Origin: a virus
Taxonomy: Duplodnaviria; Heunggongvirae; Uroviricota; Caudoviricetes
Length of the DNA: 34,871 nucleotides
Strand: one strand, 5' to 3'
Virus record (IMG/VR): IMGVR_UViG_2541047758_000018
Every line of letters starts with the position of its first letter. The first letter of the stretch is position 1. Position numbers and translations under genes: made by a program. Below the pieces are notes generated by a model that had not been told where the DNA came from, did not search any database, and saw nothing but the letters and a program-made list of their open reading frames with translations. This document shows positions 11,768-29,304 of this stretch, piece by piece.

Positions 11768-13086
11768 TGGCGACATGGCAACTTGGCGGGCTGCCTAGCA
11801 TGGCACCGCAAAATGATAATGCTCCTCGTTCTTCCGTTCCTCAGCCTGTGCAGTATCAGCAGCAGCCAAACGTAGGTTTAATGGCGCTACAGGGGCTAAG
11901 AGGCGTTGCTGAGATTAATCAGCAGGCGCAAATTTCCCAGCAGTTAAAAGAATATCAGGCACGGTTGGGTAGTGCGGTAGCTAATAATGATCGTGTTGGC
12001 GTGCAGAAGTTAATGGCCCAGTATCCCCAGTTTATGGCTGATTCTCAAAAACAGATGGGATTCATTGATGCTGAGCAAAATCGACAGACCGCTGACGCTG
12101 CCATGAATCTGCGTCTTGCGTCACAAACTGGAGATCCACTGACCATGCAGAAGGCCATTCAGCAGGCAAATCCAGTATTACAGCGATTTGGTCTTCCTGC
12201 TGAAGAGGTTTATCAGTCTTGGCAGAATGACCCACAGGAATTCAACAGAATCACTGACCTCATCCACCTCCATGCTGATCCAAATAGTTACTTTAGTGTT
12301 CAAGAGAAGCAGCAAGGGCAGAGCATTGCACAGCAGAACGCAGATACATCCGCATATAATGCTCAGGTTAATGCGGAACAGGGTAATCGACGTCTCGATA
12401 TGGAGCAGTTCAAAGTCCTATCCGATAACCAACTACGCACGAGAGAAATGGTTCTGAAAGCACGACTTGGACGTGCTCAAAATGACATCGAGAGAGACAA
12501 GCTCAATGCTGAACTGAGCAAGGTACAGCAGGCGAAAGTGGAGAAGATGAACGATAAAATTAATACTGTTGCAGGTAACATCGACTCCTTGAACTCTGCG
12601 CTTGAAGTGGGTCATGAACTGGCGGGAATTGTAGGGAAACATCCTTCGGCCGTTACCCGCTCGCAGAACTATAACCCCCTGACGCTGGGGTTTGGATTCC
12701 TTCCTGATGTAGCAGAAGACACACGAAGCCTACGCGCCAAAGCTGATGAATACAACCTAAAGGTTATTCTGCCTAGCCTCAAAGGGACTTTTGGCTCTAA
12801 CCCAACCGAAGGGGAAAGGGCTGCCCTTATGCAATCTCAAAATGGCATTAAGTCAGCAACCAGCAATGAGGCATTTTTGCGAGAGTTGAATAAAGCGCAG
12901 GACGTAATTATTCGAATGCAGAAACGACAGATTGCCGGGCTCGGTATTCCTGTAACCAAATCTAAGGACGAAGAAACTGATACCAAAATGCTGTTGCAGG
13001 ATCCTTCACTAGTTAAGGATTATGTGACCGCACATGGCTATCTGCCGGAAAGTTACTATCAGGCAAAACTTAAGGGATGGCAATGA
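11767..13086 (+). CDS. Gln-rich coiled-coil-like protein (439 aa); ejection/internal-virion-protein-like
   Basis: ATG overlaps the upstream stop (TAATGG); composition and size resemble the middle ejection protein of podoviruses (P22 gp20 / T7 gp15 class). Confidence 0.5.
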   Translation: MATWQLGGLPSMAPQNDNAPRSSVPQPVQYQQQPNVGLMALQGLRGVAEINQQAQISQQLKEYQARLGSAVANNDRVGVQKLMAQYPQFMADSQKQMGFIDAEQNRQTADAAMNLRLASQTGDPLTMQKAIQQANPVLQRFGLPAEEVYQSWQNDPQEFNRITDLIHLHADPNSYFSVQEKQQGQSIAQQNADTSAYNAQVNAEQGNRRLDMEQFKVLSDNQLRTREMVLKARLGRAQNDIERDKLNAELSKVQQAKVEKMNDKINTVAGNIDSLNSALEVGHELAGIVGKHPSAVTRSQNYNPLTLGFGFLPDVAEDTRSLRAKADEYNLKVILPSLKGTFGSNPTEGERAALMQSQNGIKSATSNEAFLRELNKAQDVIIRMQKRQIAGLGIPVTKSKDEETDTKMLLQDPSLVKDYVTAHGYLPESYYQAKLKGWQ

Positions 13087-15414
13087 TGGCACAACTGACA
13101 GAAAAACAGAAAGCCTATTCCCGTCATCTCGATGAAAAATATGGTTTCCCATCAGGGACGATGGAAACATTAGTTGGCAATGAATCTAGTGGTAACGGAA
13201 GTGCCGAGTCACCGAAAGGAGCTAGAGGATTTGCTCAACTGATGCCCTCAGTAATGAGTGATGCTGGTTATCGTGGAACAGATCCGCGCTCACTGCCATT
13301 TGAAAAGCAAATGGATATCGCAGCAAACCATCTCAATAAAGGAATGAAGCGATTTGGTGATATAGGTATGGCATTGGCTGGGTATAATTCTGGCTATGCT
13401 CGTATTAATGCCGTCAGAAACGGTAAATCTACACTGCCAGATGAAACGGCTAATTACGTAAGTAAATTTGCAGATGCTGGAATAATCCCTGATGACAGTG
13501 AAATCTTGCAGTTTGCACAAACCAGTCAACATCGCAATCTTCAGCAGCCTGACTACTCAGAGCTTGATAAAGAAATCTCTCAGGTGGGAGATATTTCTGC
13601 ATGGGAAGCAAAACGTCAGCAATTTAAGAACATAGAAGCAGGACTACCAACAGCCAGTTCATGGGAGCAGAAAAGAGCTCAGTTTCTCGCCGATGAAAAT
13701 GCCGGGGAACCGCAGCAGCAAGTAGCCAAGTCTAACCTTAATCCTGAGATGGAATATCTTTCGCCAGGACTGAAAGCTGCGCCAGAGCAGATGGCCAGAG
13801 GGATTGCTAATATACCGTTTGATGTAATGGACGCAGGCGTGGGGGTAGTCAATGCGGCGCAATCAGCCGGAGCATGGGCAGCTCAGAAGCTTGGTGTGGG
13901 TGATGGCACATACACGCCCATATCACCTGTCTTTCGCCCAGTAGACCAACCTACAGATCCATACGCGCAGGCTGGTGAGCAGCTAGCACCTTACCTTATT
14001 ACAGGATTAGGTGCAGGAAAGGCAGCTACCGCAGCTTCTTCAGTTGCCAACGCTCCACGTGCTGAACGTGCGGCCACAAAGGTGGCTAGTATGTTGGCAG
14101 AAAACCTGCCAGGTACATTGGTGAACGCCCAAAAGAACGGGCAGATCAGCCCAGAAGACCTAGCAAAAGAGACAGGTATTGGCCTAGCAGGATCGCTAGG
14201 AGCACGCGCTTTAATAAAGAGCGGACAGACAGCCAGTGACGTAATGCGAGATGTATTGCGGAGTAATACAAATCAATCAGGCCATGTGTTAGGGGCAGCA
14301 AATACTCTGGAAACCGCCAATGATGTATCGAAAGCAGCGCGTTCTGCCGTAGGCCGAGAGCATATCGCATCGCAGGCATCAAACGTCAGAGATGATGTCG
14401 CTAAGGCGGCGAAAATCACTGGTATTAATATCAACACCCTGACGCCTGGAATGCGCTCAGGTAGTCGTGGAATTGCCCAAGCAGAAGGTGTTCTGGCATC
14501 AACTCCTGGGAATGTTCAGGATGCTCACCTTACGGCCTTCAATGAAATATCCTCAAAGTTGAATAAGCAGTTGTCTGATTTCGGTGCTGAGTCTGGAAGC
14601 GCATCAGAAAAAAGCGCAGCAATTAAAGAGCGCATCATCGCGAGCCTCAGTGATATGAAAACAGCAGAGAATATGGCATGGGCAGAACTGCGAAGCACGA
14701 TGCCACGCGAAAGGATGAAAATGAGTAATGGGATGGCTGTCGTCCAAGCAGAAAAAGCAGCCAATGTTCCACTCAGCCCGGAGATGAAACAGTTTCAGGC
14801 TGCCAACAACCAAGGTGGCGGCATAACCTTCGACGGGATGAAGGCATGGCGTGCTAAGTTTGCTGATGCTGAACAAGCAAACACCCGGGCAGGTAAGGCC
14901 AATGCCGCCCGGATTGCCGGAGAAATGCGCAGAGCTATCACTGATGACATGCGCATCATGGCTGAAAAAGGAAACTTCCTCACAGAATGGCAGAAAGCTA
15001 ACGATCTCTCTAAAAGTTACATTATCGCCAAACAAAATGCCGAATCTGTTTTTGGTCGAGATCTCGCATCAGACGCTATGGTAAGAAAAGGTGCCGATAC
15101 GCTTAAGGCATCCGCAAACACTGGAACGGGAGCTTTTCACCGTCTTATCTCCGCGCTGCCGGAAGCAGAACGCCAACCTGCAATAGCATCTATTCTTCAG
15201 CATGCTGTGGCGCAGGGAGAGAAGGGAGGAATCGGTGAAGAGTCAGGTATCCAGTATTTTGCCAAGCTCATGACCCAGCAGAATGTAAACGCCATCAGTC
15301 GTCATGCGCCAGATCTCGGTAGAATGATGAAAGAGTTCGGTGTACTCGCTAAAGCCAGTACCAGACCGCAGCGATACGTAGAGCGCACGGGAAGAACAAC
15401 TGAGGCTCTCAAAA
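13077..15414 (+). pseudogene. Phage internal-virion/ejection-type protein with N-terminal lytic transglycosylase (SLT) domain, 3'-truncated by IS911-like insertion (native part about 779 codons)
   Basis: SLT signature ESSGNGSAESPKGARGFAQLMP ... ALAGYNSGY near the N-terminus. The ORF reads through the IS end at 15415 and terminates inside the IS at 15569, so the last 51 codons are IS-derived. Confidence 0.7.
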
Positions 15415-15444
15415 TGAAGTGGTCAACAAAAACTGGCCACCGAG

Positions 15445-16628
<1,184 letters not shown>

Positions 16629-17051
16629 CTCTGTTCAGGTGGCCAAATTCAGTAAACCACTTCAGTTCCTGGAGATGATTCGTTGCTTGTGAGCAAGAGG
16701 TGGTCCGCTTTACTGGACAAGTTTTGCATTTGTTGAGTGGTGAAATGGAAGTAAAAAGAGCCCCTTTCTGGCAATGACTGAAAAAGTCAGTAGCGTGTGA
16801 CAGTAAAAACTAACATAAAGTGATTATCGTATGATTATGACAATGACTTATAACTTTTATGAAAAGAACAACAGAAACTATGAAACCATAGCAGATTCCT
16901 GAGACCATGTTTTTTGAGGTAGAGAAAATAATTCAAGAGTAAACCAGTTTGTTTTTTGATCAGTAAAGAACCATGCCTGATGTGAAAACGGGTAATCAAC
17001 ATTCAGTCTGCATGAGTGTCTGAGAATGTTGCTAATGTCGGTATGATACTA

Positions 17052-17210
17052 TATACACATATTTTACTAAGTATTTTTACTAAGCATTTCAGTAAGTGTT
17101 ATACACGTATTTTCTACTAAGTGTTTTACCAGACATACACGTATTTTCATAAACACTTCTACAAGTGTTTTCATTAAGTATTGTTATACACATTGCTTTG
17201 TCTGACACAC
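17052..17210. repeat. Imperfect direct-repeat array (ATACAC[A/G]TATTTT and ACTAAGT[G/A]TTTT motifs, about 4 copies) inside a 1.37-kb ORF-free region
   Basis: atacacatattttactaagtatttttactaagc / atacacgtattttctactaagtgttttacc / atacacgtattttcataaacacttctacaagtgttttcattaagt / atacacattg; no ORF of 60 aa or more on either strand between 16665 and 18034. Confidence 0.5.
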
Positions 17211-17980
17211 ATCCAGTTTAGTAAATCTTTACGTTAGCTAAAATCAGTTTAAAGCTGCTACAAAGCAATCTTTCCTGTTTAAGCAATCAAGATGACATTC
17301 TGTTTTTCTGAAGTTACGTTTAACCTTTTCTGAGTTTTTGTGTTTTTGGTCGTTAACCGGAGAAAAGTATCTTTACGTAAAAACGCAAATCCGACTGAGA
17401 TAACCTGGCGTGATTTACGGAGTGCTTACGACGATTTAGTTAAATGGTTTTATGGATGATTTTGTAGCGATGAGGTTGATGAGATGATTAACTGGCCCTG
17501 GTGTTTTTTTTTCTCAGAGCAAGGCTCTTTTCAGAAAAAGCGTGATGATTGGTTCTGGTGTTTTGATTCAGATGAGGTTTACGTTATCGATGGTTAATCG
17601 CTTTTATGGTGCGTAGTGAAACGTAACATTTTCAGGATGAGAAAATCGATTCTGATGTTAGTGGTTTTTGTTCTTGGGGTGGGGTTATCTGTAAACAGGT
17701 TTTAAACGCGCTATTCGGCTCTGTGATTGAGTTGTGTGGTTAAGCTATAGGTTTTGGTGTTGTTGTTGATTCACAGCGCCAGAAATCGTTCTGATTGCGT
17801 TTTTGATGTTTTGTTTGCACGTTCTGTTGATCCGTTTCCCTTCTGACTTTTCTCGTCGTCCATGCCGTTTTTAAATTCATTTGCTGTTGTTGTGTTTTTT
17901 TACCATCTTTTCGTTTGTAGGGGATTCCATTTTTATCCGGAGTAGGTTGTGTTGCTCAATGGTGGGAGTTCGTAAAGTTT

Positions 17981-18024
17981 TACCGCGGTGATTAATGATG
18001 TGAAGTCAATCCAAATCAATGGAG
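17981..18024 (+). promoter_or_regulatory. Conserved roughly 44-bp motif, copy 1, ending 10 nt upstream of the first YagK/YfjJ-like gene (includes its Shine-Dalgarno ggag)
   Basis: taccgcggtgattaatgatgtgaagtcaatccaaatcaatggag; near-identical core to copy 2 at 18917-18956. Confidence 0.45.
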
Positions 18025-18034
18025 ATCTCTCATC

Positions 18035-18766
18035 ATGAATCAACCAATACACAATGCTTACTGGTTATCCCGTTTTGAAAGTATTCTCAACAGTGCCCTG
18101 GCGCAACACCGTGCCGTCTCGTTAATCCGGGTGGATTTACGTTTCCCTGAGTATATGCCTGCCACCATTATGGATACCGATTTAGATTCAGCGGTGATTT
18201 CTCGTTTTTTCGAATCCCTGAAAGCAAAAATTCAGGCTTACCAGCGACATAAACGACGTGCCAACAAGCGTGTGCATGCAACCACTCTGCGTTATTTCTG
18301 GTGCCGGGAGTTCGGCAAGGAAAAAGGCAGGAAACATTATCACGTGATATTACTGCTCAACAAAGATACCTGGTGCTCGCCAGGGGATTTCACCGTTCCT
18401 TCTTCGCTGGCGACGCTGATCCAACTGGCATGGTGCAGTGCTCTGCATCTTGAGCCCTGGCAGGGTAATGGACTGGTTCATTTTTCCAGGCGGACGCCTT
18501 TCCGTAAACCGACATCATCCGATGCTCGCCCTTCTTCCGATGACACGCCTTTACCTGGTGGATGTTCTGATACCCGGAAGGATTCTGACAAAAAGTCTGG
18601 TGGATCCGCTGTGCTCTGGATCAAGCGTGGTGATGTAGAAGCGATGCAGAAAGCCATGGAGAGAGCCCGTTATCTCGTGAAGTATGAGACGAAGCAGCAT
18701 GACGGTTCTGGTCAACGTAATTATGGTTGCAGTCGTGGAGCGGGGCGTCTACTGGATGGCAGGTGA
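18035..18766 (+). CDS. CP4-type prophage protein, YagK/YfjJ-like (inovirus Gp2-like family) - assignment from memory of family features
   Basis: 243-aa protein with RVDLRFP ... KHYHVILLL pattern; tandem paralog arrangement next to an AlpA-like gene as in CP4-6/CP4-57 cryptic prophages. Confidence 0.45.
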   Translation: MNQPIHNAYWLSRFESILNSALAQHRAVSLIRVDLRFPEYMPATIMDTDLDSAVISRFFESLKAKIQAYQRHKRRANKRVHATTLRYFWCREFGKEKGRKHYHVILLLNKDTWCSPGDFTVPSSLATLIQLAWCSALHLEPWQGNGLVHFSRRTPFRKPTSSDARPSSDDTPLPGGCSDTRKDSDKKSGGSAVLWIKRGDVEAMQKAMERARYLVKYETKQHDGSGQRNYGCSRGAGRLLDGR

Positions 18767-20839: not shown

Positions 20840-21181
20840 TCAGCGCTTTCTGGCTTTTCGTCGGTCATTCAGCACCATTAGCCGGGCCTCTGCCTCTTTC
20901 TGTTCCTGTAGTGTCACTTCCCCGCACGGCAGCCCCTTCAGATCGTAACGGGCGCCATCTGCCATTAACGCACATGAATAGTGCGGAGACTGCACATAAG
21001 ACGCCACTGCCGCGTGTAATGTACCAGCGCCAAACGCCAGTTCTCTGATGGCGATATCCTGTATCAGGTCGTCAGGTATCTCAACTTTAAGCGGTTGGGG
21101 TTTTTCCCGGTTGAATAACTCAGGCCAGAGTTCCACAAGACGATTAATACGCTTACGGTTTTTACGCTGGCGTTTTGTCAT
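20840..21181 (-). CDS. ProQ/FinO-domain RNA-binding protein (113 aa)
   Basis: LVELWPELFN...PLKVEIPDDLIQDIA...LHAAVASYVQSPHYSCALMADGARYDLKGLPCGEV aligns by eye to E. coli ProQ (LAERFPHCF...PLKIGIFQDLVDRVA...[35 protein letters not shown]). Confidence 0.65.
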   Translation of the reverse strand: MTKRQRKNRKRINRLVELWPELFNREKPQPLKVEIPDDLIQDIAIRELAFGAGTLHAAVASYVQSPHYSCALMADGARYDLKGLPCGEVTLQEQKEAEARLMVLNDRRKARKR

Positions 21182-22014
21182 ATGCCGCCACGGTGTTTTT
21201 TCAGCAGAGCAGGGCTCTGTTTATCGTTCAACTGTGGTATCCGTTCCCTGGCCTTCACGTTGTGTGCAGTGTTCGTTTTATCCTGCAGCGGCGTTGCCGG
21301 TGATTTACTGAAAATGCCCTGTGGTTTACGGTTAATGGTCAGCGTTACCATCAGTATTGTTACCTCATGCTGTCAATGGAAGTAGTACTCCATCCAGAGC
21401 CTTGGCGACCCCGGGGCTGAAAACGAAACAATAACCCGCGCACAGTGCGAGGAGCCCGGGCGTGAAGCAATCAGCAGGTAATATTAATGGCAAGACCAGT
21501 AGGTTCTTTAAACAAACGAACAATATCAGCAAATACGACAACTCCCGGAGAGGTAAAAAGTTTTTCACTTGAGCACTTCTTAAAAAAATGGAGACGAACA
21601 AAAATGGGGCGACATACCTGGAAAGTATTGCTACCAGATGATGCTAAAAAGCAGAAATAGTGTTCCAGGCCTGAAAGGGATGAGAATCAGTATCTGTGTG
21701 TATTTATAACATCTTCTTGAAGAGGCTGGAGATTGTTAGTCCATTAGTATAATCGATATTCGTGTTCCTGCGAATATGCAGGCTACACCAGATATATGAT
21801 TGCTACCGAATTTCATCAGTTTGATGAAATTACGCATCATACTGCGGGCTTTTCTCATTAACATTAACGAAAGTGAATGGACTCAGACAAGTAGTGACCG
21901 GCGCAATTTCGCTAAGTATCAAATACAAAGAACGTTCTCTTACTTTCTGCGATGGCCTTTCCTTCGGAAAGGAAGTGACGATTAAGTACCGAAAAATGTG
22001 ATACACATATTATT

Positions 22015-22074: not shown

Positions 22075-22509
22075 ATGAGTAAGAAGAAAATTTCTTTTGA
22101 AAATGAAGAGTTCATTACTTACCGGGCATTACTTCTGAGTATTGACTTTGTTAAAAAACTGGTTATAGAAATGTCTGATGAAGATTTAAATAAGGTTAAG
22201 GAAAACTTTGACATAGCTATTCAGCAACGTAATGAGCGAAAGGAAAATATGAAAGCTATCAAATCACTCATGGATGAACATGGTATATCTCTGGAAGATT
22301 TTTATTGTGAATTTGGCAAAAAATCACAGGCAGGCAGAAAAAGTGTGTCAGGAAGGCATAAATACGAGTATGACGATAACGGTAAAAGAATGTACTGGAA
22401 TGGACAAGGACGTCGGCCTAAGGCCATAGCAGAGGCTATAAAAGCCGGAGGTTCTCTTGATGATTTTCTTATATCTCAGGAAGTATCATCTGGTCCTGAT
22501 TATGAATAA
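22075..22509 (+). CDS. H-NS family nucleoid-associated protein paralog (144 aa), island-borne
   Basis: C-terminal DNA-binding signature YEYDDNGKRMYWNGQGRRPKAIAEAIKAGGSLDDFLI matches H-NS Y.Y.DENGE.KTWTGQGRTP..I.....LDDFLI; N-terminal coiled-coil-like region; AT-rich gene. Confidence 0.8.
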   Translation: MSKKKISFENEEFITYRALLLSIDFVKKLVIEMSDEDLNKVKENFDIAIQQRNERKENMKAIKSLMDEHGISLEDFYCEFGKKSQAGRKSVSGRHKYEYDDNGKRMYWNGQGRRPKAIAEAIKAGGSLDDFLISQEVSSGPDYE

Positions 22510-23595: not shown

Positions 23596-24849
23596 TTACT
23601 TCAGACAGTGAGTTTCCCATTCCTTGACTGCAAATGTATCCATCATACCTGAAATATAGTCAACCACTGCTCGTTTTTTGCTGATTTTAAATATATAGGA
23701 ATCTGGTTGGGGTAAGGTGAATTTAAGTTCAGGAGGCAGAAATTTATAATTCTCTCCTTCATTGTAAAAGTCATATAAATCCCTGATTATTTTATTTCCC
23801 CTGAACTCATAGGTGAGGATATTACGTTTTCGCATGATGACTTTAAAGAGAAGTTTTTTGAGCCCTTCGGATAACGCATTCAGTTTCCCGAATCCCAGTT
23901 CCTGAAAACCATTCAGGTTCGTTACTACAGAAATATCTGCAACGAGGCGATTGACAATATTTGAAGTTAACTCCTTGCGGAATATGATGGCAAATTCTTC
24001 TGAGGTTTTCAGTAAGTTAGCCTGAAAAGCGGTGTTTCTCGACTGAGTAACGATTTCCCTGAACTGTTCCCTCGCTCCCCGGAATTCGTCAGAAATCTGA
24101 AACTCATATTCAATATCTTCAATCGTGACCATGTTCCTGCTAAGGGCATCTTCCAGGTCATGCGCGGCATAGGCAATCTCATCCGCGAGATCCATTATCT
24201 GCGCATCAATCGTTTTCTCTCCGGGATTCAGATCGAGCTGATTTTCAGCAAGCAGGTTAATGTAAAAATAGTAATCATCATCATAAATGAACTTGCCGGC
24301 AGTAGCTGCAGCGCGGGGGATGGGATACTTAACAACCGAAAGTAAACTACGGTGAGTCAGATTTAATCCGTTGCAGTATGAAAATTTCTTCTCCAGTTTT
24401 CTCAGGATACGTAGCGCCTGTGCATTGCCTTCATAGCCGCCGATTTCTTCAGACAGTTCATTAAGCAGTTTTTCACCGGAATGACCGAAAGGAGGATTTC
24501 CGATGTCATGCGCCAGCGCTGCCAGTTCAACCACCACCGGGTTAACCAGTTTGAGGTCTGACGCGATACTTCGGGCGATCTGAGCAACCTCAAGACTGTG
24601 CGTTAATCTGTTTCTGTTGAATTTTTCAGGATCAATTTCAAAAAGTTGCATCTTTCCCTGCAGCCTGCGAAATGATGATGAATACAGAATACGCGCATAA
24701 TCCCGTTGATAATTATCCCGGCTTCTTGTTTCACCATCGGGGGACGGGTGCTCTCTGGTATCAGCAAGCGCACTGATAAGTTTTTGTTCCTGCTCTTGCG
24801 CAAATTCTTTTAATTCATTGCAGTACATATTTCTTCCTTTCTGGAGCAT
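23596..24849 (-). CDS. dGTP triphosphohydrolase-family HD-domain protein (short form, 417 aa) - probable antiphage dNTP-depleting dGTPase
   Basis: Aligns by eye to E. coli Dgt motifs: FRRLQGKMQLF (IRRLQQKTQVF), RLTHSLEVAQIARSIA, LAHDIGNPPFGHSGE, YEGNAQALRIL, MDLADEIAYAAHDLEDA, DYISGMMDTFA; shorter than housekeeping Dgt (505 aa). Confidence 0.85.
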   Translation of the reverse strand: MLQKGRNMYCNELKEFAQEQEQKLISALADTREHPSPDGETRSRDNYQRDYARILYSSSFRRLQGKMQLFEIDPEKFNRNRLTHSLEVAQIARSIASDLKLVNPVVVELAALAHDIGNPPFGHSGEKLLNELSEEIGGYEGNAQALRILRKLEKKFSYCNGLNLTHRSLLSVVKYPIPRAAATAGKFIYDDDYYFYINLLAENQLDLNPGEKTIDAQIMDLADEIAYAAHDLEDALSRNMVTIEDIEYEFQISDEFRGAREQFREIVTQSRNTAFQANLLKTSEEFAIIFRKELTSNIVNRLVADISVVTNLNGFQELGFGKLNALSEGLKKLLFKVIMRKRNILTYEFRGNKIIRDLYDFYNEGENYKFLPPELKFTLPQPDSYIFKISKKRAVVDYISGMMDTFAVKEWETHCLK

Positions 24850-26297: not shown

Positions 26298-27278
26298 ATG
26301 ACTCTTTTGGTAACGGCTGAGTGTGTTGACGATCTGATAAACGATGTTCATCAAGCTATCCTAGCGGATGGACTCAGTAACGATCCTACAAAAGGATCAA
26401 CTCTAGAGATTCTTGGTGCCTATCTTGTCCTTACCGACCCCCGCCGAAGAATAAGTAGAACAGAATCCCGAGGAAAACTAATTAGTTGCTTAGGTGAATT
26501 TCTGTGGTATCTCTCAGCTCAGAACGATCTTGAGTTTATAAAACACTTCATACCACGTTACGCTGAATCCGCTGAGTCAGATGGGAAAATACATGGTGGT
26601 TACGGGCCACGGTTGTTTAATATGCGTGGTTTATATAATCAGCTAAAAAATGTCATCAACCTTTTGCAGGAGAAAAAACCTACCAGACGTGCAGTAATAC
26701 AGCTTTTCGATGCCTCAGACTTGGTGCCCTCAAAAACTGAACAGCGAGAATACGTAGATATTCCTTGTACAATATCTATGCAGTTTATTGTCAGATGTGA
26801 AGAGCTGCATCTATTTGTTTGTATGCGTTCTAACGATGCCTTTATGGGGCTGCCTCATGATGTATTTGCGTTCACGATGCTACAGGAATTAGTTGCCCGC
26901 TTGATAGGATGCGAATTGGGTCACTATCATCACTTTGTATCCAGCCTACATCTCTATAAAAATGATTTAGAAAAAGTGAAGGCTCTTCAGAAAGAGGGGT
27001 TCATGAGCACCCTACCAGTCATGGGATCGATGCCTGAAATGCATTCCTTAGATGATATCTTACCCCTGCTTGAGGCAGAAAAAGCTCTTCGAGAGAATAA
27101 GGAATTTGATATTGACACTACTTCCTTGAATGACTACTGGAAGGATTTATTGCGTATATTAAAAATCCACTTTTTGTTACGTTCACATACACCCAACCAC
27201 AAAGGACTAGCCTTCCAAGAGTTGGCTGCAATGAAAAATCAGGAATATCGGTTTATTTTTGAAGGAAGACTACAATGA
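26298..27278 (+). CDS. Thymidylate-synthase-fold pyrimidine C5-modifying enzyme (ThyA / dCMP-hydroxymethylase-like), 326 aa
   Basis: Aligns by eye to E. coli ThyA: LISCLGEFLWYL (IIHELLWFL), RRAVIQLFD (RRIIVSAWN), nucleophile Cys in IPCTISMQF (APCHAFFQF), MRSNDAFMGLPHD (QRSCDVFLGLPFN), HLY (THLY). The specificity Asn is replaced by Asp, as in dCMP hydroxymethylase. Confidence 0.8.
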   Translation: MTLLVTAECVDDLINDVHQAILADGLSNDPTKGSTLEILGAYLVLTDPRRRISRTESRGKLISCLGEFLWYLSAQNDLEFIKHFIPRYAESAESDGKIHGGYGPRLFNMRGLYNQLKNVINLLQEKKPTRRAVIQLFDASDLVPSKTEQREYVDIPCTISMQFIVRCEELHLFVCMRSNDAFMGLPHDVFAFTMLQELVARLIGCELGHYHHFVSSLHLYKNDLEKVKALQKEGFMSTLPVMGSMPEMHSLDDILPLLEAEKALRENKEFDIDTTSLNDYWKDLLRILKIHFLLRSHTPNHKGLAFQELAAMKNQEYRFIFEGRLQ

Positions 27279-28219
27279 AAAGACATAATCAAATCAGTCA
27301 GCTGGTTAGTAATTTGCAAAATTTTAGCCGCAATGAACACAACCTAAATGGTCTAAGTTCTCCTGCCTGCTTTGATGTTTTAGCCTGTCAGATTATCGAC
27401 AGTATACGTCGTATACGCTATGTGGAAACTCTTGCATTACGGACCGATTATATGACTCCGTTACGAAAAGAGCCGAATTCTGATGTTTTTGATCCTCTCC
27501 GCGCTGCCTGCCTTTATCTTCGTGACAACAATTACGATGAAGCCTGCTGGCTGGTTTTCCTTGCCACACATTTCGGCAAGAGTAACAAAACCGGCTGGAT
27601 TTTGTGTCGAGATATATACAGTGGACTCGGTACACAAACGTGGACATGGGATACGATAACTGATGACTTTGCTGCTTTTGAACAATGGTTCGCCAGCGTC
27701 TCTGATGAGTTGACAGCTAACAGTAGCCTAAGACAATATGGTAACCATCGGAAATATGAAACGAAGAAATATCACTCTCGTCGTTCAATACCTGCGGTTT
27801 TTCGCTCTTACATCGGATTCATTGGTGCTACACACAGTCATGAGGCTAGGTTTGCAGAGGCCAAGAGCTTTTCATCTTCACCAGAATCTTTATTCGAACT
27901 ATTGTATTCAGGGCTAAATGCCGTGATCTCATTTGGACGAACCGCAAAATTTGATTACCTAACTATGCTCAAGAAAACGGGACTTCTGGATGTAGAGCCG
28001 GGTCATGCTTTTCTGAATGGAGCAACCGGGCCCCTTCAAGGAAGCCGGCTACTTTTCAGCAATAGCCGGACTGCTGGTGACACAATAGACGTATTGAATG
28101 AAAAACTAGCTGACCTTGCGGCAATTATTCCTGCACCCTACTTGAGAATGCAGGTTATTGAAGATGCGTTGTGCAACTGGCAGAAATCACCTGACCGTTA
28201 TGTCTATTTCGGCGGCTGA
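27275..28219 (+). CDS. Hypothetical protein (314 aa), translationally coupled partner of the ThyA-like enzyme; function unknown
   Basis: ATG overlaps the ThyA-like stop (ATGA at 27275-27278); no motif I can assign with confidence. Confidence 0.6.
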   Translation: MKRHNQISQLVSNLQNFSRNEHNLNGLSSPACFDVLACQIIDSIRRIRYVETLALRTDYMTPLRKEPNSDVFDPLRAACLYLRDNNYDEACWLVFLATHFGKSNKTGWILCRDIYSGLGTQTWTWDTITDDFAAFEQWFASVSDELTANSSLRQYGNHRKYETKKYHSRRSIPAVFRSYIGFIGATHSHEARFAEAKSFSSSPESLFELLYSGLNAVISFGRTAKFDYLTMLKKTGLLDVEPGHAFLNGATGPLQGSRLLFSNSRTAGDTIDVLNEKLADLAAIIPAPYLRMQVIEDALCNWQKSPDRYVYFGG

Positions 28220-28221
28220 TA

Positions 28222-29304
28222 TCAGACGATATCTTCTTTACGGAATCTCACTTTAAACCGATTAAGGTGAGAAAAAGGTATATTACCTTCATGCTGCAAA
28301 TATCCCAGTACGATCCCTTTGGATACCCCCATTTTCCTAGCTAACCGGATGATCTCTTTCCAATGCCGGACACCATAGCGACTAAGTTGCTGCCGGTATT
28401 CTTCTGGGATAAGAACATCAACGGCAAATTTATCTGCTTCCTTTTCCTCTTCCGACGAAAGACTATCTTTACCTTCTACGCGAACTCGGACAGCTTCATG
28501 CAAGATGAGATGCCCAATCTCATGAAACAGCGTAAACCAAAAATGGTCATCGGTCAGATAACGGAAACTCATGACTAGGGTTGCGCGATCTGGTGTAAAA
28601 AAGCAGGTAGCACCACTTGCCCGACATCCCTTTGGCGTTGGCAACACAACGAGAGAAACTCCAGCAGTGGCGAGAAGGTCGCGAATGTAAGGGATAAAAA
28701 TCCTCATGTCGGGTTCATTTGTAGCTTTGCGCAGTTCTGGCAACAATGCTATCAGCACCTCTTTATCCCATACAGCACAGTTTTGGTTTGAGGTAAGTTG
28801 TGCAGCCCTAGTCAGCCACACCAAATCGGCCATAGGCTCGGTTGCCAGATTAAGAGATTTACGAAAAGCGACCAAAGGAGCATCTGACTGAATTTTATAA
28901 AAAAAATCATTGACGGAATTTATTCCGAAAAACGATAGGCAGTGCTGGAATTTACTTTCCCGAGTTGTAGTTTTGGGGATCCAACCAAACTCCATCATAT
29001 CACGTACAGGCAATGATTCGAGCCAATCATTATTCACTTTCTCGAGGTATCCAATTTGCTGGCGATAAGCGACTTCGCGCTTGATCCAGAAGTCTGTCGA
29101 TACGTTGAATAACTCCTCAAGCTTACAAGCCAGAGACTCATTGAGTCGGATTTTTCCTTCAAGAAGTTGCTGACCCCGGATAAGAGACAATCCAATCCTC
29201 TTACTCAGTTCTTCACCAGAAAGCCCATGTTCATCCATTAGATCTATAATTGTATCACCGGGTGGAGATACCCAGTCAGGCTGGAAGTCCTGCGTAACTA
29301 TCAT
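28222..29304 (-). CDS. HTH (XRE-type) + ImmA/IrrE-family zinc metallopeptidase fusion protein (360 aa)
   Basis: N-terminal HTH GDTIIDLMDEHGLSGEELSKRIGLS; C-terminal HExxH motif FHEIGHLILHE with downstream EKEAD, typical of the ImmA/IrrE (COG2856) peptidase domain. Confidence 0.75.
   Translation of the reverse strand: MIVTQDFQPDWVSPPGDTIIDLMDEHGLSGEELSKRIGLSLIRGQQLLEGKIRLNESLACKLEELFNVSTDFWIKREVAYRQQIGYLEKVNNDWLESLPVRDMMEFGWIPKTTTRESKFQHCLSFFGINSVNDFFYKIQSDAPLVAFRKSLNLATEPMADLVWLTRAAQLTSNQNCAVWDKEVLIALLPELRKATNEPDMRIFIPYIRDLLATAGVSLVVLPTPKGCRASGATCFFTPDRATLVMSFRYLTDDHFWFTLFHEIGHLILHEAVRVRVEGKDSLSSEEEKEADKFAVDVLIPEEYRQQLSRYGVRHWKEIIRLARKMGVSKGIVLGYLQHEGNIPFSHLNRFKVRFRKEDIV

Follow-up and report, generated by a model that had tools for sequence, protein, structure and literature searches.

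The stretch of DNA analyzed here, referred to as the window, is a 34,871-nucleotide virus record of the Caudoviricetes (IMG/VR IMGVR_UViG_2541047758_000018) in which positions 16665-18034 form a 1.37 kb region without long open reading frames (ORFs) that ends at the start codon of a gene of the YagK/YfjJ 'inovirus Gp2' family. Comparison across genera indicates that (i) 16929-17210 is an ancient cis-module, one that accompanies Gp2-family genes in many genera, and (ii) ~17211-17984 is a younger layer, found in the E. coli lineage only, that is predicted to give an ~0.8 kb C-poor, U/G-rich leader. The cis-module is well supported by this comparative evidence, and the functional steps that we attach to it are all inferred. 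We suggest, at about even chances, that the region controls an island HUH gene from upstream, in that an autoregulated promoter and an iteron/origin module are combined with a long silenced leader. The layout, a Rep gene with an adjacent iteron origin/promoter, is of a known kind; what is new is the family, the motifs and the E. coli spacer.

The Gp2 protein and its cis-module

The features on which this proposal is built are the following:

16929-16939, plus strand: motif 1, TAATTCAAGAG (family consensus TAAYTCCAGAGT; TAAYTCCAGAG(T)), one of two candidate recognition/nick sites
17029-17057, plus strand: motif 2, sigma-70 promoter-like, TTGCTA (17029-34), 17 nt, TATACA (17052-57), with GTCGGTAT at 17037-17044 in the spacer
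17052-17210, plus strand: array of ~12 short direct repeats (period 12-13 nt) of type A, TACACRTATTTT, and type B, ACTAAGTRTTTT; candidate iterons/operators of the HUH protein
17205-17264, plus strand: conserved block 3' of the array, with TTTACGT and AAATCAGTTTAA; identity 0.92-0.96 over 12 homologues
18035-18766, plus strand: YagK/YfjJ 'inovirus Gp2' family gene, HUH nickase-like, with HUH at KHYHVILLL and Tyr motif YLVK

The Gp2 protein matches the profiles PF11726 (4.5e-37) and PF23343 REP_ORF2-G2P (4.7e-9, above threshold); a search of PDB sequences with the Gp2 profile gave no match. The HUH motif, H101-Y-H103 in KHYHVILLLN, is kept in at least 90% of a set of 16 homologues whose aligned identity goes as low as 42%, and the Tyr motif Y-x-x-K (YLVK in the window, YLAK in the consensus) is kept by all full-length homologues. 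The protein model has the HUH nuclease fold, and its best structural matches are origin-binding nickase domains of the parvovirus NS1/adeno-associated virus (AAV) Rep type, with the following figures:

Minute virus of mice NS1 8.3; Bocavirus NS1 7.5; B19 NS1 7.4; SIRV1 (Sulfolobus islandicus rod-shaped virus 1) ORF119 Rep 7.2
AAV5 Rep 7.0; Helitron transposase 6.7; pMV158 RepB origin-binding domain 5.2; Geminivirus Rep 5.0

Since the catalytic HUH and Tyr motifs are conserved, Gp2 is expected to have a DNA substrate, and HUH Rep/nickase proteins bind tandem direct repeats adjacent to their nick site. The E. coli protein carries at residues 153-189 (18491-18601) a low-complexity insert of ~37 aa with a predicted local distance difference test (pLDDT) score below 50, which homologues in other genera lack. 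Relatives of Gp2 are also encoded by six viral contigs, and a Gp2-like protein is a core gene, with no function assigned, of Pseudomonas islands transduced by a jumbo phage (preprint, PMC12595487). The literature search returned nothing on the motif sequences, the module or the function of the YagK/YfjJ proteins.

When one genome per species was scanned with the Gp2 protein alignment, 62 loci were obtained. Among the genera with relatives are Brenneria, Kluyvera, Rosenbergiella, Hafnia, Proteus, Providencia, Budvicia and Limnobaculum as well as Klebsiella, Serratia, Photorhabdus, Pectobacterium, Yersinia, Oceanisphaera, Neptuniibacter and Bermanella. In other genera the ORF-free, AT-rich gap ahead of the Gp2 gene measures mostly 350-600 nt instead of 1.4 kb and lacks a consistent skew; a strand-specific module is common to the homologues of ~20 other genera. 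Motif discovery with k-mers over 29 non-redundant upstream regions yielded two non-trivial motifs. Motif 1 sits exactly where universal E. coli homology starts and marks the left boundary of the module. With at most one mismatch it lies upstream of Gp2 in 28/50 loci of other genera, 144-626 nt from the ATG and on the gene strand only. Of the 77 fetched loci, 21 contain the exact 11-mer, each as a single plus-strand copy; ~0.6 matches would be expected by chance in ~0.68 Mb (calculated). The logo from 20 sequences reads T20 A20 A20 Y T20 C19 C18 A19 G20 A20 G16 T15. In viral contigs, a 14-mer form of motif 1 gave 84 matches, which we judge to be at chance level or below.

Motif 2 lies 75-129 nt downstream of motif 1 (51 nt in K-12 yfjJ) and has a family form, an invariant T-GTYGG followed by WWT-R-K-TAnTAT, that is conserved across lineages. 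In the window it reads as a sigma-70 promoter, TTGCTA-17-TATACA, at the position homologous to the published yagK promoter, and a promoter scan tool placed an overlapping CTGAGA-16-TATGAT there. Directly after motif 2, many lineages have tandem repeats with a sequence and period of their own, e.g. 23 nt in Proteus, 36 in Limnobaculum, 16 in Budvicia, 25 in Hydrogenovibrio and 13 in Buttiauxella and E. coli; Pectobacterium, in which no motif 2 is recognisable, has a 17-nt array at the corresponding position. Tandem Repeats Finder (TRF) detected repeats within the 120 nt that follow motif 2 in 10/21 lineages versus 12/196 AT-rich control windows from the same loci (14-fold, Fisher p = 2.4e-6), and in most lineages with TRF detection the repeats begin 6-32 nt after the start of GTYGG. 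Because lineage-specific repeats follow motif 2 in many lineages, we regard the E. coli array as one version of a family-wide feature. Tandem repeats that lie beside a rep gene and differ in sequence between lineages are what is expected of a rolling-circle origin.

In the window, type A is present in three mismatch-free copies at 17054, 17102 and 17136 (within 94 nt) and in weaker copies at 17160 and 17187, and type B in five copies with at most two mismatches in 17066-17184 (within 120 nt); an inverted pair, AAACACTT/AAGTGTTT, lies at 17151-17170, and TRF reports a period of 13 nt and 5.2 copies. The direct repeats described in an earlier note on this DNA are real, but 'about four' copies was too low a count. 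The array was found in 12/12 E. coli homologues, which differ in array length by gain or loss of whole units. In the homologous locus L010, an extra copy of a 17-nt unit, GTTTAGTAAATCTTTAC, is present near window position 17225. A lone near-copy of the type A repeat (TACACATATTAT, one mismatch) lies at 22002-22013, ~60 nt upstream of the gene for an H-NS paralogue, and may be due to chance.

An iteron-type theta origin, composed of DnaA boxes, AT-rich 13-mers and iterons, was considered and rejected, as DnaA boxes form no cluster here: matches to TTWTNCACA with at most one mismatch are at chance level over the window (75 versus 73.7 expected), the three local matches are the type A repeats themselves, and the single perfect box, at 17184, is unconserved among homologues. 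No IHF site was found in the region.

Alternatively, the motifs and repeats could serve solely to control transcription of Gp2, by AlpA, by another island regulator or by Gp2 acting as a repressor, with no origin being involved. This would agree with the correspondence of motif 2 to a sigma-70 promoter, with the lack of a hairpin or known nick sequence at motif 1, and with the presence of an AlpA-family gene as a core neighbour (PMC12595487). It would not explain why HUH and Tyr motifs, which imply a DNA substrate, are conserved down to 42% aligned identity, and the spacing between motifs 1 and 2, which ranges from 51 to 129 nt, is unlike that of a fixed activator site. In addition, Rep origins such as those of pMV158, the geminiviruses and AAV usually have lineage-specific tandem repeats next to a conserved site. 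We therefore consider a purely regulatory module unlikely, though a serious contender to the combined promoter and origin module that we favor.

The K-12 relatives bear on the same question. CP4-57 and CP4-6 have no DNA homology to the window; however, the regions upstream of K-12 yfjJ and yagK contain a compact motif 1 plus motif 2. These genes are like the window in gene family and in having both motifs in the same order and on the same strand, and unlike it in having spacers of 152 and 271 nt, no G+T-rich leader and no 12-13-nt array; of the repeats and strand skew for which the earlier note had proposed this comparison, neither is shared. A constitutive RpoD promoter for yagK, TTTAGA-16-TATAAT, has been listed in the H-NS-marked yagK-yagL spacer (Shimada et al. 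2014, PMC3946193), and given that GTTGG lies in its spacer and TATAAT follows, we equate it with motif 2.

The G+T-rich spacer of the E. coli lineage

The following features lie between the array and the Gp2 gene, including those of two variant loci, L013 and L016:

17301-17950, plus strand: G+T-rich unstructured spacer/leader, untranslated and fast-evolving; as RNA U 41%, G 25%, A 20%, C 14%
17535-17654, plus strand: best-conserved block within the spacer, identity 0.91-0.98, with two ATCGAT sites; right part lost in L013/L016
17577-17924, plus strand: replaceable spacer segment, in L013/L016 exchanged for ~1.2 kb with a small opposite-strand gene
17985-18045, plus strand: near-invariant proximal region, identity 0.97-0.99, with a predicted hairpin pairing the Shine-Dalgarno (SD) GGAG (18021-18024) with the AUG (18035-18037)
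L013 3784-4314 and L016 987-1502, strand opposite to the Gp2 gene: small gene of the variants, a 171-aa ORF in L016

The region lies, as first described, between an IS911-like element and the YagK/YfjJ-like gene: 16664 is the final base of an IS911-type inverted repeat and 18035 begins the ATG of the Gp2-family gene. Its description as free of ORFs also holds, since in a mechanical ORF listing the maximum within 16665-18034 is 55 aa and no ORF of at least 38 aa is kept across 12 homologues. GC content in the region is 0.28-0.41. The G+T-rich plus strand with many GTTTT runs that drew attention to the region is confined to its 3' two-thirds, and 17051-17300 has a slightly opposite skew. In 17301-17950, G+T is 0.662 (66.2%) on the plus strand (GC skew +0.28, AT skew -0.35) against a window mean of 0.496 (sd 0.03), which exceeds 4,961/4,961 background 650-nt windows taken from other loci; GTTTT occurs 19 times versus 3 times for AAAAC. 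Every E. coli haplotype compared retains the keto skew, and no counterpart of the G+T-rich spacer was found in other genera. A search for internal duplication in the G+T-rich part gave no alignment better than E = 0.3. Simple deamination is not supported as the source of the skew: the substitution spectrum, for which no outgroup was used, has no clear strand-biased transition excess (C/T 71 versus A/G 62); G/T 34 versus A/C 11 is as expected from base composition.

Most of the spacer evolves rapidly. In divergent homologues its identity to the window is 79-89%, with many indels, and that of Gp2 third codon positions is 85-95%; since the spacer diverges faster than these positions, there is no blanket constraint on it. 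Blocks of higher conservation are 16995-17084, 17145-17174, 17205-17264, 17535-17654, 17685-17774 and 17985-18044. The segment 17577-17924 is dispensable, as it is replaced in L013 and L016. The fold that joins SD and AUG has z = -1.9 for the single sequence, and RNAalifold gives z = -2.4 for 17885-18044 on a near-invariant alignment. Near window position 17665, L010 has a (GGTGAT)4 microsatellite expansion inside the G+T-rich spacer.

The tempo of this divergence, together with the indels, the microsatellite expansion and the replacement of a whole segment, would fit a non-specific AT-rich spacer, either an H-NS/StpA nucleation or silencing platform or tolerated junk, with the repeats as slippage products. 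The low GC content points in the same direction, as does the H-NS paralogue, which is encoded at 22075-22509, i.e. about 4 kb away as the earlier note had it. Binding has been measured on the CFT073 copy of the region, which is 98% identical to the window. In these chromatin immunoprecipitation sequencing (ChIP-seq) data, c4560 (159 nt, inside the spacer) has an H-NS occupancy of 0.20 and is bound in the wild type, ΔrfaH and ΔstpA and by StpA too, and c4561 (1131 nt, the upstream gene) has an H-NS occupancy of 0.60 and is also listed in Δhns, with an anti-StpA signal that persists in ΔhnsΔstpA; flanking c4551-59 and c4562-80 are absent from the CFT073 bound list (Hustmyer et al. 2022, Data set S1E, PMC9765446). 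The equation of c4560 with C_RS29680 and of c4561 with C_RS21510 is ours and is based on gene length and order. Because a spacer ORF and the upstream gene are listed as bound by H-NS/StpA, H-NS binding is supported, and the region resembles H-NS/StpA-silenced acquired DNA in low GC, T-tracts and measured binding on its homologue. The platform envisaged by the earlier note is in this sense supported, in a weaker form, but such binding is generic for AT-rich acquired DNA, occupancy of the spacer is modest, and generic binding leaves unaccounted for (i) the gene-linked, strand-specific motifs 1 and 2 that are shared across genera, (ii) the enrichment of repeats at one fixed place and (iii) the extreme keto skew in all haplotypes. 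As a complete explanation, a non-specific spacer is in our view improbable.

Nor does the region appear to be the remnant of one or more decayed protein-coding genes. Traces that could be read in this way are frame 0 of 17292-17597, which is open but for one stop and in L016 becomes an 86-aa ORF with an internal W-x-W-C-F repeat, and a minus-strand ORF of 52-57 aa that the Prokaryotic Genome Annotation Pipeline (PGAP) calls in some genomes. However, half of the haplotypes have frame 0 interrupted by a 4-nt indel, no ORF is kept across haplotypes, and PGAP annotates no gene in the region in nearly all of 1,879 records. Searches with tblastn of 42 stop-free fragments against the 62 related loci gave nothing better than E = 0.05, and conceptual peptides of the region had no Pfam match; the check for small ORFs with conserved coding signatures that the earlier note proposed gave nothing in their favor. 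In CFT073, three errors are reported for the part of the reference sequence that corresponds to this spacer, at NC_004431.1 4331694-4331745 (~window 17890-17940; Hustmyer et al. 2022, Data set S1G, PMC9765446). Because correction of one of these frameshifts the annotated 159-nt ORF c4560/C_RS29680, this ORF is an annotation artefact. The situation that would have spoken for decay, an intact gene in homologous regions together with unconserved repeats, was not encountered: no homologue has such a gene, the repeats are conserved, translated similarity is absent, and the gene in L013/L016 is non-homologous DNA that replaces part of the spacer. We rejected a pseudogene remnant on these grounds and consider it extremely improbable.

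A functional long non-coding RNA (ncRNA) or structured leader, acting as a riboregulator or as the target of the ProQ/FinO-like protein of the island, is a further alternative. Its most favorable evidence is a promoter-like element ~970 nt from the ATG, with no terminator predicted between motif 2 and the Gp2 ATG, a ProQ/FinO gene nearby, and the block 17530-17800, which folds slightly better than shuffles (z = -2.2). Predicted pairs in this block are kept at 97.7% in nine sequences, but also at 97.3% after shuffling, and three pairs only are altered on both sides, so that covariation is no better than in shuffles. Folding of four sub-regions gave z = -1.5, +0.65, -2.2 and +1.1, RNAalifold in 160-nt windows with column shuffling gave z from -1.9 to +2.0 on both strands, the last window excepted, and an Rfam scan found no match in the region at E <= 1. 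Part of the best block is, moreover, dispensable in L013/L016, and the sequence evolves faster than synonymous sites. A known or structured ncRNA was rejected accordingly, and we hold a functional RNA of this kind to be very improbable. A long 5' leader of ~970 nt is likely, because 17029-57 is the sole conserved promoter-like element; of the 'long structured' leader suggested earlier, the length survives and the structure does not.

A model for the control region and comparison with known systems

Combining the conserved module with the composition of the spacer, we suggest that RNA polymerase would start at ~17064 and produce a leader of ~970 nt beginning with the array. The HUH protein would bind the repeats as iterons, and iteron-bound protein would repress the promoter of its own gene and be in place to nick one of the two motifs, so that the module could serve the excised island as an origin of rolling-circle replication or of mobilisation. 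The G+T-rich leader, coated by H-NS/StpA, would keep the Rep gene silent and insulated, and the hairpin over SD and AUG may add translational control. The C-poor sense RNA may escape Rho, which the C-rich antisense RNA would not, and the G-rich non-template strand could favor R-loops. In the boldest version of this model, module and Gp2 constitute a working replication/mobilisation cassette and the leader is a selected gate that is Rho-asymmetric, possibly R-loop-prone and H-NS/StpA-coated; we put this version forward tentatively and regard it as rather doubtful. The extreme strand skew of the untranslated 0.65 kb stretch is in itself a compositional oddity, and a role for it is offered as part of this proposal only.

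The idea of an origin or oriT-like site, raised when the region was first described, is plausible for 16929-17210 only, where a motif and an iteron module lie by an HUH gene. Folding of the type seen at single-stranded DNA (ssDNA) origins is absent: with DNA parameters, 200-nt windows on both strands gave z from -1.2 to +1.1, and a single-strand origin, ssi or Frpo-type ssDNA promoter was ruled out for lack of strand-specific folding. A plasmid 'leading region + oriT' arrangement was likewise rejected, because the antirestriction/RadC/CbtA genes form an arm that is transcribed away from the region, whereas by reasoning from the F-plasmid model a leading region beside an oriT should have the other orientation.

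In rolling-circle and parvovirus systems, separate nic and bind loci are found as the direct repeats of pMV158 RepB, the iterons and nonanucleotide of geminivirus Rep, and the Rep-binding element and terminal resolution site of AAV/parvovirus Rep. Rolling-circle origins have a nick sequence conserved throughout the family, which is usually exposed in a hairpin loop. Like these origins, the module consists of conserved short motifs and lineage-specific repeats that lie beside an HUH gene and overlap its own promoter. It differs in having 12-13 nt units of two interleaved types in ~12 copies and in lying in a chromosomal island instead of a plasmid or virus, and its nick site, hairpin and replication are putative. 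We know of no classical origin with an ~0.8 kb G+T-rich spacer between module and gene. Some integrative mobilisable elements use rolling-circle Rep-type proteins, including phage gene-II-like proteins, as relaxases. The island shares with these elements an integrase/AlpA and a Rep-like HUH protein with an adjoining non-coding site, and is unlike them in that no coupling protein or conjugation gene and no ssDNA promoter-like folding were found here.

Several observations weigh against the model. About half of the distant loci have no recognisable motif 1, which lies in a hairpin in few loci only (L053, L037 and E. coli haplotype 2) and not consistently, and in which no known nick sequence was recognised; 11/21 lineages have no TRF-detectable repeats. 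Most of the spacer is under little sequence constraint and may possibly be without specific function. The opposite-strand gene of L013/L016 lies between motif 2 and the Gp2 gene, which suggests that there is another promoter proximal to Gp2 or speaks against one continuous leader of 1 kb. Many E. coli Gp2 database entries are truncated or frameshifted, and the Gp2 system may perhaps be decaying. Finally, binding and nicking by Gp2 and replication of the island are steps that we infer.

About a third of complete E. coli genomes have the region, in up to 8 copies, in islands with virulence, toxin-antitoxin and probably defence cargo, and such islands are usually treated as non-replicating passengers. 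If the model is correct, a conserved cassette of an HUH protein and a cis-site would give these islands a mechanism for amplification or mobilisation after excision, and the 'cryptic' P4-integrase/AlpA islands that are very common in E. coli and other Proteobacteria could be amplified or mobilised as circles. The cassette also offers short DNA targets in the form of the 11-mer, the GTCGG promoter and the iterons. Because cargo hot spots adjoin it on either side, its motifs are useful landmarks for mining unknown gene sets.

Distribution, island context and neighboring genes

Features at the left end of the region and in the variable upstream position are the following:

16638-16664, minus strand: terminal inverted repeat of an IS911-type IS3 element, reverse complement TGAAGTGGTTTACTGAATTTGGCCACC; outside the island module
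16665-16920, plus strand: 3' flank of the variable upstream cassette, shared only with islands L001-L007 (376-aa gene) and absent with other cassettes
Upstream gene sets: L001 7718-8848 (376 aa); L008 730-2465 (316+262 aa); L010 351-2164 (320+284 aa); L012 1227-2450 (407 aa)

Megablast found related DNA in 1,878/5,426 complete E. coli genomes, with at least 80% query coverage in 798; a genome has up to 8 copies, which are 75-100% identical to the query and nearly all located on chromosomes. Among plasmids four records match, and the phage collection gave no match to the region. Gene order is constant in the 13 fetched loci: a YfjP/YeeP GTPase gene on the minus strand, one or more variable genes, a gap of 1.45-2.8 kb without annotated genes save an occasional small hypothetical ORF, the Gp2 gene on the plus strand and variable cargo. 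The region always lies directly upstream of the Gp2 gene, between two variable cargo positions. The upstream one, between the YfjP/YeeP GTPase gene and motif 1, is occupied by one of at least four unrelated gene sets; these had no Pfam and no PADLOC match, and the position resembles a hot spot for cargo, perhaps for defence genes of unknown kinds. Among the cargo downstream of Gp2 are a TIR protein, a restriction endonuclease, YfjI and ireA.

All arrangements share homology from ~16921-16926 onwards, and therefore we assign the first 256 nt of the region to the cassette of the 376-aa gene. Homology to the intact islands begins at exactly 16665. In the window, the 376-aa gene and a further 152 nt of spacer are missing owing to the insertion sequence (IS), and the left arm of the island is replaced by IS911 and P22-type phage DNA. 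The IS911-type element (15445-16664) truncates a P22-type ejection/SLT gene (13077-15569) and on its other side abuts the island spacer; the intact islands L001-L007 have there instead the 152 nt of additional spacer, the 376-aa gene, the YfjP GTPase gene and the klcA/radC/cbtA arm. From this we conclude that prophage and island were joined by an IS-mediated rearrangement.

Two further observations concern the cargo. The ProQ/FinO-family gene at window 20840-21181 is a 113-aa ORF here and is annotated as frameshifted in L001 and L004. The stretch at window 26298-28219 encodes a thymidylate-synthase-like protein and, after it, an aGPT-Pplase3/ADDT protein (4.8e-90), a pair that normally functions in phage thymine hypermodification; here it belongs to the island and adjoins an HD-domain dGTPase-like gene (23596-24849) and an M78 peptidase/HTH gene (28222-29304).

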